A DNA stretch of 64,000 nucleotides from a virus: positions 9,802 through 73,801 of IMG/VR virus record IMGVR_UViG_3300030117_003378; one strand, written 5' to 3'. This document shows, one piece after another, positions 24,283-27,033 of this stretch (position 1 is the stretch's first letter; each line of letters opens with the position of its first letter). The position numbers were made by a program, and so were the translations under genes. Under the pieces are notes generated by a model. The model was given only the letters and a program-made list of their open reading frames with translations. It had not been told where the DNA came from and made no database searches.

Positions 24283-24302
24283 TGGGTCACCATGGTGACC
24301 CA
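24283..24302. promoter_or_regulatory. Perfect 20-bp palindrome TGGGTCACCATGGTGACCCA over a start codon
   Basis: Seen directly; about 20 nt downstream of TATATAT at 24263. Confidence 0.6.
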
Positions 24303-25233
24303 CCTGAGCCGGAATCGGAAGGCGATAGCCTCACGCGTAGCACTGTGTGACATGGTCGGATTTGGTGATATCGCCGAATTGAAGTACGAGGCCACAGAAT
24401 CAACTCAAGGCATGGGCCGGTTCAAAGAGTCCAACGGTGGACACCTAACCAAATTCGGCAAAGAGATGGTTCTAAGCATGGAACAGGCCGGATATGCTGG
24501 CAAGGGTATTAGTCGAGGCGGGTTCATCGTCGATGCCAGCGAAGAGGGATGGCAATACGCCGCCGATGTCCTAGGAGGTAACCCATGGCACCGATTAGAC
24601 GACGGGCAAGTTATCCAATACGGTGACATCAGACAAAGCGACAACCCATTGACTAACAACTACTACCACGTTCTACAAGGCGTATTCGATATGGCAGAGG
24701 GTGACCGTGACCTTGAGCGACTTATCGCCCTCCTTCATACAAAGGTCCGATTCAAGACCACATTTGACGAGGCACAAGGTAACTACGACACAGGCCCAAG
24801 CACCCGAACCCTATGGACAAAGGCACGTTCATGGGTTCAATTCATCCGTAAGAAGGAGAAGCAAGCCGGATTCATGCCCATTCTACTCAAGGACGCCGGA
24901 CATTATGACCGCATCAAGCACCTTATCGTCAAGCCGTCCGATGTTATTCACCTATCCGGCAAGCGTGCCGGAGATGTCAAGCAGTCATGGCTTGACGCAG
25001 TAAAGCGACGCCGTAAGAACGCGGACAGTCGCAACAACAAACGTTCAAACCGTAGCCGTTCCCGCCGCAAGACAGCGGGAGAGAAGGCTAAGCGGTCAGC
25101 CCGGAAGAACCGCCGGGGTGCTACGCGGGAAACCCCCACACAGCGTAGCGAGGCAGGACGCGCCTACGAAAGCGTCAGTGCAAAGCACAGCAGGGACATT
25201 GCACCTGTGACCCGCAAGGGATTCACTAAGTAA
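24292..25233 (+). CDS. Hypothetical protein with an Arg/Lys-rich C-terminal tail
   Basis: 313 aa; KRRRKNADSRNNKRSNRSRSRRK...; probably leaderless (TATA about 28 nt upstream). Confidence 0.75.
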   Translation: MVTHLSRNRKAIASRVALCDMVGFGDIAELKYEATESTQGMGRFKESNGGHLTKFGKEMVLSMEQAGYAGKGISRGGFIVDASEEGWQYAADVLGGNPWHRLDDGQVIQYGDIRQSDNPLTNNYYHVLQGVFDMAEGDRDLERLIALLHTKVRFKTTFDEAQGNYDTGPSTRTLWTKARSWVQFIRKKEKQAGFMPILLKDAGHYDRIKHLIVKPSDVIHLSGKRAGDVKQSWLDAVKRRRKNADSRNNKRSNRSRSRRKTAGEKAKRSARKNRRGATRETPTQRSEAGRAYESVSAKHSRDIAPVTRKGFTK

Positions 25234-25236
25234 TGC

Positions 25237-25791
25237 TGGCTCCGCCTTCGGGCGTCGAGCAATTCCCTGACCCCCTAACAGGGGGTGGCCCTCAAAGGGC
25301 GACCCATTAGGCGGAGCCATGGACGGCGTAGCATACCGTTCCATTGTTCTGAACCGGTGGGTTGCAAAGGTACCTATGTCCCGGCTTGTGACCCCAAGCC
25401 CGACAGAGAGCCACCCCCGAATAGGATTCCAAGAAAGGACAGAATATCAGGGCCGAACACGGGCAACTGTGGTGAGGAAGAAAAAGGGGGTGGCTTGGCT
25501 TAACCTTATCAAGTCTCTCATTTCACCTTGACAGGAAACAGTTGCCGTGCGGCGATATAACCAAAAACTGTTTTCATTGTCTTGGTGGTGAGATAAAATA
25601 CTGTGTGTTTATACCGTTAGAGTTTGGTTGCTTTCTCTATCCGACAAATACAGCAACAAATACACACAAGGCGCTATCCGTAGTCTGAGTAGTTAACAGA
25701 TTGCGAACAACGTAAGAGAGAGGTTGTGGGGTGACTCCCCTCTCCGCCTATCCGTAAATCAGCCGTAGCCGGTCACAAGCCCGGTTTAGAA
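25237..25791 (+). ncRNA. Large structured non-coding RNA or UTR element 1 (about 555 nt)
   Basis: 11-bp helices 25237-47/25309-19, 25347-57/25781-91, 25383-93/25771-81 and 25408-18/25486-96, plus many local hairpins with G-U pairs and UUCG/GCAA loops. Confidence 0.7.
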
Positions 25792-25838
25792 ATGATGAGT
25801 GCGGAAACCCGACCGAAGAGGGATAAGGAGTGAGAAAA

Positions 25839-26411
25839 ATGAATGGAACAGAAGCAGTCGTTCTGCTTTTCTTCATGGGCGTATTTGCCGTAACGGCAAA
25901 AATCGCACACGGAGTTAAGAAGGGCGATATTGTGATGGTGAAGCCAACGCTTTCCGCAATCGCGGAAGGTCTTGGTCTAAAGGTGGAAACGGAATATGAT
26001 GCGCCATATTGGTTGCAGATTGTCCACGCGCATGGGTTTGAAAAAGCCTTACGCGGCGTGGTCAATACGCTGAAACATGGTGGTCAACTTGTTGCAGAAG
26101 TAAACGTGTTTGCTTTGTACAACAAGGGAGTTCGTGAGATGAACGCAATACCGTGGAGAATTGGAAAAGAGTTGGCAAAACTCAACACGCAATTTGAGTG
26201 TGGTTGTACCGAAAAACTAGATGATGGTGTTGCGTCATGCACCGAGATATTGGAGATGGCAATTAAGTCGTTGGTTGAAGAACATTATCGGCACAATGCT
26301 TTAGCGCGGTTAAACAAATTCTATCTTGACCGCCTCGCTTCGGATGCTGAAATCGAAGCGGACAATGCCTCTCGATGGGGAACGCACATACCCGTTAAAG
26401 GTATGGATTGA
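25839..26411 (+). CDS. Hypothetical protein with a hydrophobic N-terminus
   Basis: GGAGTGA RBS before ATG 25839; 190 aa. Confidence 0.7.
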   Translation: MNGTEAVVLLFFMGVFAVTAKIAHGVKKGDIVMVKPTLSAIAEGLGLKVETEYDAPYWLQIVHAHGFEKALRGVVNTLKHGGQLVAEVNVFALYNKGVREMNAIPWRIGKELAKLNTQFECGCTEKLDDGVASCTEILEMAIKSLVEEHYRHNALARLNKFYLDRLASDAEIEADNASRWGTHIPVKGMD

Positions 26412-27020
26412 CCGGGCTTAGGCCCCGATTGTGAGTCCGGGGGGGTACATCCCCCTCGGCTCCGACGGGAAAGCCGAAAGGCAGGAGGTGAAAACTGAAA
26501 TGGCACAATTGTTAGTGAGACTTGAGTTCCCAAAAGAAGGATGCGTTTTTGAGGAATACAAAGTAGCATGAACACCACAGAACACGGAGACAGGGTGAGT
26601 CGGTACGTCCGGCCCCTGCTCCAAAGTGTCACTGTGACACTCGGTAAACCACAGTTAGCAAGTTGTAGCGTTAGTAAGCAAACGAGCAAAGGGTTGGAAT
26701 GACAGAGGTGCGCGGAAAGGCATTGCGCCGGACCCCTGCTGTCATAAACAACAAAGAAGCCATGTGATAACGGGACAGTCTGTAAGCATTAAAGAAGCGA
26801 TACCTGCCAAACATGAAGGATTAGACCTCCTATCATTGAGGTACAAAAAATCGCAATACGCAAGCAGATTGACACCCACACGATATGAAGGCGATAGCAC
26901 AAAGCGAACACAATACAACGAACTGACTGACATAACCGCATTAAAGGCATGAGGAGTTCGACGCCAGAGTTACTCATGGCCCACCATTTACCGGTGGGTA
27001 CTCGGATGGCGCAAAATAAC
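26412..27020 (+). ncRNA. Structured non-coding RNA or UTR element 2 (contains a micro-ORF)
   Basis: Hairpins 26433-26462, GCC-GAAA-GGC 26473-82, 26586-26622, 26699-26745, 26776-82/26865-71, 26948-78 and 26980-98. Confidence 0.6.
26500..26571 (+). CDS. 23-aa micropeptide MAQLLVRLEFPKEGCVFEEYKVA
   Basis: Perfect GGAGGTGA RBS at 26484-26491, the same as for the two downstream genes. Confidence 0.5.
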   Translation: MAQLLVRLEFPKEGCVFEEYKVA

Positions 27021-27033
27021 GGAGGTGACATTT

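Follow-up and report, generated by a model that had tools for sequence, protein, structure and literature searches.

The intergenic region

The sequence analysed here (the window) is a stretch of 64,000 nucleotides (nt) forming part of a 73.8-kb IMG/VR virus record (IMGVR_UViG_3300030117_003378). Two plus-strand open reading frames (ORFs), at 24292–25233 and 25839–26411, are separated in it by a non-coding gap of ~596–605 nt. Towards its 3′ end the gap carries a type-P1 twister ribozyme without the P3 helix (25751–25805, plus strand), preceded by ~520 nt of conserved and partly structured sequence and followed by the leader of the downstream gene. A preliminary description of 25237–25791, made from the letters alone, had proposed a nested RNA structure of about 555 nt with long-range closing helices, interpreted as a novel large non-coding RNA, a ribozyme or a switch.

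Relatives of the locus comprise one viral contig (L119) and four metagenome contigs (L121–L124), which together with the window represent ~4 distinct variants with a mean identity of 94% over the alignment. No further homologues were found in the phage collection or in genome contigs, and the flanking proteins are without viral relatives. Four DNA patterns taken from the 520-nt segment and scanned across viral contigs matched only the contig of L119. In ~19 marine DNA runs, drawn from 9 studies, approximately one-quarter of the words of a 2.3-kb query around the gap are present, and these words may lie inside or outside the gap itself.

The twister ribozyme

The 55 nt at 25751–25805 match the Rfam family RF03160 (twister-P1) with a score of 46.8 bits, under the family’s gathering cut-off of 67.2 bits, and with E values of 7e-9 in a permissive scan of 1.4 kb and 3.2e-7 in a scan of the whole window. 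The entire P3 hairpin of the model is deleted in the alignment. P3 is optional, ~20% of twisters carrying a short junction instead, including the crystallized ribozyme of O. sativa (PMC5408937). The remaining helices follow the type-P1 order P1–P2–P4: P1 joins 25751–54 to 25802–05 (UCCG:CGGA, 4/4 pairs), P2 joins 25758–61 to 25793–96 (AUCA:UGAU, 4/4 pairs) and P4 joins 25769–71 to 25782–84 (CCG:CGG). Both pseudoknots are present, T1 between C25774-A-C25776 and G25799-U-G25801 (CAC:GUG, where the consensus CCC:GGG is changed on both sides) and T2 between G25762-C25763 and G25779-C25780 (GC:GC). With the conserved nucleotides, and the U-A scissile step adjoining P1, defined as in PMC5408937, the consensus nucleotides U^AA, GC, GGUC(A)CAAGCCC, AAA and GAG(U)G of L1 and L4 all align, the covarying T1 changes being the sole departures. 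On these features 25751–25805 is a twister of a known class (type P1, no P3) and would be self-cleaving, with the cut predicted at U25755^A25756, 83 nt 5′ of the next start codon. The ribozyme is identical (100%) in every variant. It is the sole twister found in the 74-kb virus genome, and its match to RF03160 is the only Rfam match in the 64 kb of the window besides one tRNA.

The same loop 16-mer occurs 130 times in viral contigs, and ~110 of these occurrences show twister hallmarks, with the CAC loop paired with GAGUG (downstream in type P1, upstream in the permuted types). When parsed, the type-P1 examples show covariation in P1 and P2. Other P3-less twisters exist among them, and 25751–25805 parses in the same P1/P2 register; P4-to-P2 linkers of 8–9 nt are also present in other viral members. 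Many twisters of this CAC loop set stand directly before a Shine–Dalgarno (SD) sequence and start codon, as does the one described here. Some viral contigs, among them L011 (2735–5405), L026, L030, L014, L035, L052 and L066, carry 2–5 twisters each with the same CAC loop variant, ~540–950 nt apart, most of permuted types and several preceding an SD sequence; from their layout, these contigs look like arrays of ribozyme-punctuated small genes.

Two further candidates were rejected. A second twister, on the opposite strand or at the L4-like GACCCCAAGCCCG (25391–403), has no P4, no GAGUG and no Rfam match. A match to the archaeal C/D-box sRNA sR32 at 25788–25827 (E 0.06–0.23) is taken as noise, because it overlaps the AUGAUGA of the ribozyme’s 3′ strand and is without proper D boxes.

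Sub-domains of the upstream 520 nt

The sequence between the upstream ORF and the ribozyme contains five sub-domains (D1–D5). D1 (25234–25321) is a three-way junction closed by an 11-bp helix (25237–47/25309–19) and containing the hairpins ACCCCCU-AAC-AGGGGGU (25270–86) and GCCCU-CAA-AGGGC (25288–300), all part of the predicted minimum free energy (MFE) fold. A local hairpin, AUGGACGG/CCGUUCCAU (25322–25345), follows; it belongs to the MFE fold as well and is invariant in all variants. D2 (25408–25496) has a conserved 11-bp helix (25408–18/25486–96) around a hypervariable tip (25424–79), which includes a CACGG-GCAA-CUGUG hairpin (25458–71) missing in L119 and L123. D3 (25498–25594) is composed of a short hairpin (25498–516) and a long irregular hairpin (~25517–25594). 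D4 (25602–25668) is closed by UGUGUGU (25602–08) and ACACACA (25662–68), with GUUGCU/AGCAAC within, and D5 (25669–25749), which adjoins the ribozyme, is closed by AGGCG/CGCCU and holds the hairpins CGUAGUCUG (25679–87)/CAGAUUGCG (25697–705) and GAGAG..GGGG-UGACU-CCCC..CUCUC (25716–44). Every helix named in the preliminary description is present in the sequence at the stated positions, the long irregular stem being at ~25516–25594.

Relative to shuffled sequences, the whole gap folds with a z score of −3.5 on the plus strand. D1 reaches −5.1 and is at about −5 on both strands, and D3 (25496–25596) reaches −4.6 on the plus strand versus −2.3 on the minus strand. The upstream 520 nt match no Rfam family at E values up to 10 (scan of 24800–26200) or up to 1 (L122 and L124, in which the additional D4 hairpin is present). 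These scans gave no covariance-model match to GOLLD, ROOL, RNase P, signal recognition particle RNA, group I or II introns or riboswitches, in agreement with the earlier failure to recognize RNase P, signal recognition particle RNA or group I or II introns here, and no riboswitch aptamer was detected in them; a separate search for tRNA and tmRNA found none in the 520 nt. The rest of the window contains no repeat of any part of the gap. The strong twister-P1 match thus removes novelty for the ribozyme part only, leaving the upstream segment without a family.

Conservation and variation

The gap is 98.6–98.8% identical to the window in L121, L122 and L124, in which the upstream ORF is 89–92% and the downstream ORF at most ~88% identical. 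In L119 the gap is still 90% identical, while the upstream ORF is 19–80% identical or partly unalignable and the downstream ORF is replaced. On these comparisons the gap is the best-conserved part of the locus. No ORF within it is kept in all variants.

The differences that do occur mostly respect the predicted structure. Leaving the hypervariable patches aside, the stems contain six transitions that preserve pairing through G-U when read as plus strand and one that breaks a pair. A compensatory change from U-A to C-G is found at 25292:25296, in the D1 hairpin 25288–300 of L119 and L123; C25418U in the D2 helix leaves a G-U pair, as does A25682G in D5, and in D3 the pair-preserving changes of L121 and L122 are at 25514 (G-U to G-C) and 25591 (U-A to U-G). 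Larger differences tend to have the size of a hairpin: a 25-nt hairpin at 25660/61 in D4 is present in every relative and missing from the window, and a 12-nt insertion in D1, in contigs of runs X3 and X7, folds as an extra GGCC-AAUU-GGCC hairpin with the 11-bp closing helix kept. In L119 and L124, D5 is shifted in register and its GUUGU bulge is deleted. Judged from the sequences, this variation of hairpin-sized indels and mostly pair-preserving changes is RNA-like, and it supports a plus-strand structured RNA for D1, D3 and several of the helices. For a single architecture of 555 nt the variation is too little to serve as proof, and the upstream structure stays unproven because there are only ~4 near-identical variants.

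Predicted pairing between the upstream RNA and the ribozyme

The two long-range helices that had been proposed to close the structure are present, 25347–57/25781–91 with one G-U pair and 25383–93/25771–81 as a perfect helix (14 nt at 93% when extended). Their 3′ arms (25771–25791) are, however, the P4, L4 and linker to P2 of the twister core, which the preliminary description had not recognized. Pairing of 25336–25393 with the ribozyme core therefore excludes the active ribozyme fold. In an alignment-based consensus fold this ‘anti-twister’ pairing extends to ~32 bp (25336–56/25782–25804 and 25383–93/25771–81). Arm A (25336–25357) pairs with 25782–25804 over ~20 bp, with G-U pairs and bulges, in the alifold consensus and in forced folds, the core of the helix being 25347–57/25781–91; the leader at 25806–28 is its alternative partner, and the 3′ arm of the local hairpin 25322–25345 overlaps it. 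Arm B (25383–25393; GGCUUGUGACC) is a perfect complement of the ribozyme loop L4 (25771–81), is invariant in all variants and could be sequestered by the local mimic CAAGCC (25395–400). The mutually exclusive alternatives noted earlier, GGCUUG at 25383 with CAAGCC at 25395 and CGCC-UUCG-GGCG, are likewise found.

The unconstrained MFE fold of every variant keeps the twister hairpins and closes the domain by 25341–63/25806–28 instead, reaching the first G’s of the SD sequence; forcing the long-range helices, which are absent from the MFE fold of all variants, costs 2–6 kcal/mol. The predicted ensemble depends on the length of the transcript, the anti-twister pairing having a modelled probability of 0.95 with a 3′ end at 25791–25815, and the twister one of 0.91–0.93 with a 3′ end at or beyond 25829. 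The upstream 500 nt are complementary to the ribozyme to a degree that is unusual without being extreme, with −46.7 kcal/mol against −37.4 ± 3.1 kcal/mol for shuffled sequences, 6 of 1,000 of which do as well. At 108 other twister loci such arms are absent, the few 10–11-mers found there lying in coding sequence and at chance level. Neither long-range helix shows covariation or compensatory changes among the variants, as the arms never vary save for G25356A (L119 and L123), which breaks the pair with either partner uncompensated.

An RNA-library contig

One metatranscriptome contig (run X20; 391 nt), of an L119-like variant, covers 25461–25752 and then joins back to 25561–25633. The back-join (25752>25561) goes back 192 nt, and the contig stops short of the invariant ribozyme. 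The two passes differ at 25618, where the first has a C insertion and the second does not, a difference suggesting two copies or strains. The end of the contig fits with processing near the predicted twister site; the join itself could stem from RNA circularization, from a related virus in which the segment is duplicated in tandem, or from a chimera.

Proposed processing of the operon transcript

The gap is fairly probably an intercistronic RNA region of a plus-strand operon, with a conserved, partly structured tail of ~520 nt that ends in a twister cutting the transcript. This reading builds on the sequence and structure features of the ribozyme, on the conservation, on the lack of a conserved ORF and on the pattern of variation, from which we infer cleavage, a single transcription unit and whatever function the tail may have. 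The ribozyme would cut the operon transcript between U25755 and A25756. The upstream product would consist of the message of ORF 24292–25233 with a structured tail of ~520 nt ending in a 2′,3′-cyclic phosphate, and the downstream product would begin with a 5′-OH and carry the folded ribozyme, the 33-nt leader with its SD sequence and ORF 25839–26411. The tail would represent a non-coding RNA made up of D1, D3 and a set of helices whose tips can be exchanged, and modelling suggests that pairing of 25336–25393 with the ribozyme core would be populated only while the transcript ends between ~25791 and 25815. By comparison with other twisters, the ribozyme most likely functions in cutting the operon transcript 83 nt ahead of the next start codon; the simplest conjecture for the tail is that it protects the two messages and takes part in their processing, or that proteins bind to it as a platform. 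Of the earlier proposals, that of a ribozyme is thus borne out for the last 55 nt only and by a known class. That of a novel large non-coding RNA may still apply to the upstream 520 nt, which match no Rfam family, keep no ORF, are conserved above their flanks and vary in an RNA-like manner; against it, no more than two sub-domains are significantly structured and only two pairs show changes in both partners.

Several observations weigh against this reading. The score of the ribozyme is below the gathering cut-off, its P2 is A-U rich and its P4-to-P2 linker, at 8 nt, is 3 nt above the consensus. Only ~4 variants are available, all more than 90% identical, and high conservation beside variable ORFs could stem from recent recombination rather than from selection on RNA. 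Double-sided changes affect only 2 of the 190 predicted pairs, and one of these is situated in the flanks. D2, D4 and D5 are no more stable than shuffled sequences, so that only D1 and D3 exceed them, and the reverse strand of the gap folds nearly as well (z −3.3) as the plus strand. The end of the RNA contig falls 3 nt short of the predicted cut, and the contig is a single one, of depth 6, from a library that may contain DNA.

Alternatively, if 25336–25393 were a built-in antisense keeping the twister inactive, with the hairpins 25322–45, the GGCUUG/CAAGCC pairing at 25383–400 or the leader 25806–28 competing for it, the order of folding, a bound factor or the length of the transcript would decide whether cleavage occurs and what becomes of the downstream message. 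The complementarity of ~32 bp spans L4, P4-3′, P2-3′, the T1 partner and P1-3′ of the ribozyme and beats 994 of 1,000 shuffles; the 11-nt perfect complement of L4 adjoins a local mimic of L4, a classic three-segment layout; the two states are 2–6 kcal/mol apart in all four variants, with the predicted ensemble flipping with transcript length, and the arms are invariant apart from G25356A. Everything nearby is equally invariant, however, and the sole change breaks its pair. The upstream arm has at least three alternative partners across folds, which is what opportunistic pairing would produce in a GC-balanced RNA of this length, such an arm is absent from the other twister loci examined, and no riboswitch aptamer was detected. 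Cleavage is, moreover, favoured by tertiary pseudoknots and by fast co-transcriptional folding, neither of which the energy models take into account. Because covariation is lacking and the G25356A break is uncompensated, the switch of the preliminary description, whose mutually exclusive pairings are real and whose predicted balance shifts with transcript length, is a plausible but unsupported reading, and we regard regulation of this kind as unlikely. A circular RNA, in which the 2′,3′-cyclic-phosphate end made by the twister is joined (for example by the host ligase RtcB) to a 5′-OH near 25561, would account for the back-join of the metatranscriptome contig. RtcB joins such ends, and engineered twister-flanked cassettes have been circularized in that way. 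The circle, of 192 nt (~218 nt in the relatives), would take in D4 and D5 together with half of D3; the join sits at a distance of 3 nt from the predicted cut and is absent from three DNA runs examined and from five DNA loci. This explanation nevertheless draws on one contig from one run, with the depth and the possible DNA content mentioned above, and the join is at 25752/53 rather than at 25755. The 5′ junction has neither a ribozyme, according to the Rfam scans, nor a bulge-helix-bulge motif (0/4 central pairs), and, being situated in the loop of the conserved D3 hairpin, would require that hairpin to be cut in two. Folding of the putative circle is unremarkable (z 0.2 in the window, −2.1 in L119), two copies or strains or a tandem duplication fit better with passes that differ at 25618, and DNA contigs show the region rearranged between viruses, all of which makes a circle very doubtful. 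A broader proposal, in which the tail and twister form one device, the antisense, local decoys and leader with its SD sequence timing cleavage and the released RNA possibly being circularized by an archaeal RtcB into a stable viral non-coding RNA, is quite improbable; if true, it would provide a natural example of a twister under conformational control and the first description, for an archaeal virus, of an RNA species made by a ribozyme.

A second non-coding gap (26412–27024; ~610 nt), downstream of the variable ORF 25839–26411, is also conserved (92.5% in L119) and has no Rfam match. In L122 its first ~90 nt are present twice (L122:2083–2165 and L122:2611–2697; 76% and 95.5% identical, ~450 nt apart), a duplication that looks, from the sequence, like cassette exchange between conserved linkers. 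Long DNA contigs from runs X3 and X16 (around 25599–25691) match only from 25599 onward, behind unrelated sequence, and in one DNA contig 25664–25834, including the twister, is replaced by 222 other letters; the element thus appears modular among marine viruses. The two gaps may accordingly be imagined as mainly DNA-level elements, either linkers that aid exchange of the ORF cassette or a protein-binding or replication site, with the twister as the sole functional RNA. Conserved non-coding blocks on both sides of an ORF replaced in L119, the duplicated start of the second block around an extra insert in L122, contig break points at 25599, 25663/64 and 25835, a motif GGGGGUGGC found twice direct and once inverted, and the folding of D2, D4, D5 and the reverse strand all fit such an element. 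Conversely, stem substitutions keep pairs through G-U in the plus-strand sense only, D3 folds far better on the plus strand, the indels are whole hairpins, the RNA-library contig covers part of the region and not its flanks, and 500–600 nt is long for a recombination linker; we therefore hold the DNA-level explanation to be improbable. A small protein gene filling part of the gap is extremely unlikely: the frames of 70–72 amino acids at 25285–25503 and 25319–25531 are open in the window, L121, L122 and L124, but they are broken by indels in L119 and L123, have no PHROG or Pfam match and a poorly spaced SD sequence, and contain a hypervariable patch with non-triplet indels.

Comparison with known ribozymes and RNAs

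The twister class was reportedly described by Roth et al. in 2014. Twisters have been reported from bacteria, eukaryotes and their viruses, and a literature search found no twister in archaeal viruses and no ribozyme paper on magroviruses, the group that the present virus resembles (below). The ribozyme at 25751–25805 shares with type P1 (RF03160) the P1–P2–P4 order, the U-A scissile step, the L1 and L4 nucleotides, both pseudoknots and the short junction replacing P3, and like many members it lies just upstream of a viral gene. It differs in its sub-cut-off score, its 8-nt linker, its probable archaeal-virus setting and the 520 nt of conserved non-coding sequence, with antisense to the ribozyme core, that precede it. 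Unusual here are the conserved and partly structured tail, the antisense to the ribozyme that it contains and the setting.

What twisters do biologically is largely a matter of conjecture (PMC5408937, PMC6765202); those of phages are usually proposed to process polycistronic messages (PMC6765202). The arrangement resembles the ‘punctuation’ ribozymes of phage messages (type II hammerheads and twisters; PMC3088659, PMC6765202) in lying between a stop codon and the next SD sequence and start codon, on the coding strand and in an operon. Such ribozymes are mostly close to the next SD sequence or start, in what look like short gaps, whereas the present one ends a conserved gap of 600 nt and occurs once in a 74-kb genome. 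As with the theta ribozymes next to phage tRNAs, which resemble that of hepatitis delta virus, cutting at the ribozyme’s own 5′ edge would define the 3′ end of the upstream RNA precisely; the ribozyme class is another one, though, and the upstream RNA is not a tRNA and possibly a 3′ untranslated region rather than a separate gene. GOLLD and ROOL are comparable in being ~500–800 nt long, multi-domain and virus-borne, but the segment described here matches no Rfam family (E up to 10), has structure supported for two sub-domains only and is known from a handful of near-identical marine viral contigs. The glmS ribozyme, the cyclic di-GMP-controlled group I intron and engineered twister switches (PMC5052635) likewise have mutually exclusive pairings of the kind that would toggle self-cleavage; unlike them, the present RNA has no recognized ligand-binding domain and an off-state without covariation, and its regulation is hypothetical.

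The locus offers a concrete case for the role of a twister, with a single, 100% conserved ribozyme that ends the best-conserved non-coding segment and can be masked by upstream sequence. If cleavage and masking both occur, the locus would reveal the way in which a virus sets the moment at which two messages are parted, or produces a stable non-coding RNA, and would extend twisters to the biology of archaeal viruses; if they do not, it is one more phage-type intergenic twister beside a conserved spacer.

The virus and the flanking genes

The virus encodes a terminase, a portal protein, a family-B DNA polymerase (PolB), an RFC-like ATPase and a GroEL-type chaperonin (cpn60), and the contigs and runs that carry its relatives are marine metagenomes. 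The head module (terminase and portal), own PolB, clamp loader, chaperonin and marine setting expected of a magrovirus are therefore all present. A GroEL-type cpn60 and a comparable gene set are described for magroviruses of groups B and C (PMC5434244). The gene set and marine sources fit this description and indicate a magrovirus-like virus, the host of which is probably archaeal (Marine Group II).

The upstream ORF (24292–25233, plus strand) encodes 313 amino acids with an Arg/Lys-rich C-terminal tail, and its stop codon lies 3 nt 5′ of the first RNA helix. It has only three close homologues and no Pfam, PHROG or atlas assignment. In other strains (runs X3 and X7) a 12-nt in-frame deletion at 25127 falls within the Arg/Lys-rich tail, which in L119 is the better-conserved half of the ORF.

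The leader of the downstream gene (25806–25838), which varies among the relatives, contains AACCCGACCG and GGGAUAAGG, both able to pair with 25341–63 in the MFE fold, and the SD sequence AAGGAGUGA (25825–33). The downstream ORF (25839–26411, plus strand; 190 amino acids counted from the ATG) is a variable cassette to which family searches, including that of the atlas, gave no assignment. In L119 and L123 it is swapped for an unrelated, shorter stretch (L119:3046–3473), with both flanking non-coding blocks retained. Within the gap, a TTTATA motif is located inside D4 (25607–25612) and a sigma-70-like TTTTCA-17-TAAAAT at 25571–25599; on the basis of these motifs, the gap may include an internal promoter for the downstream gene.

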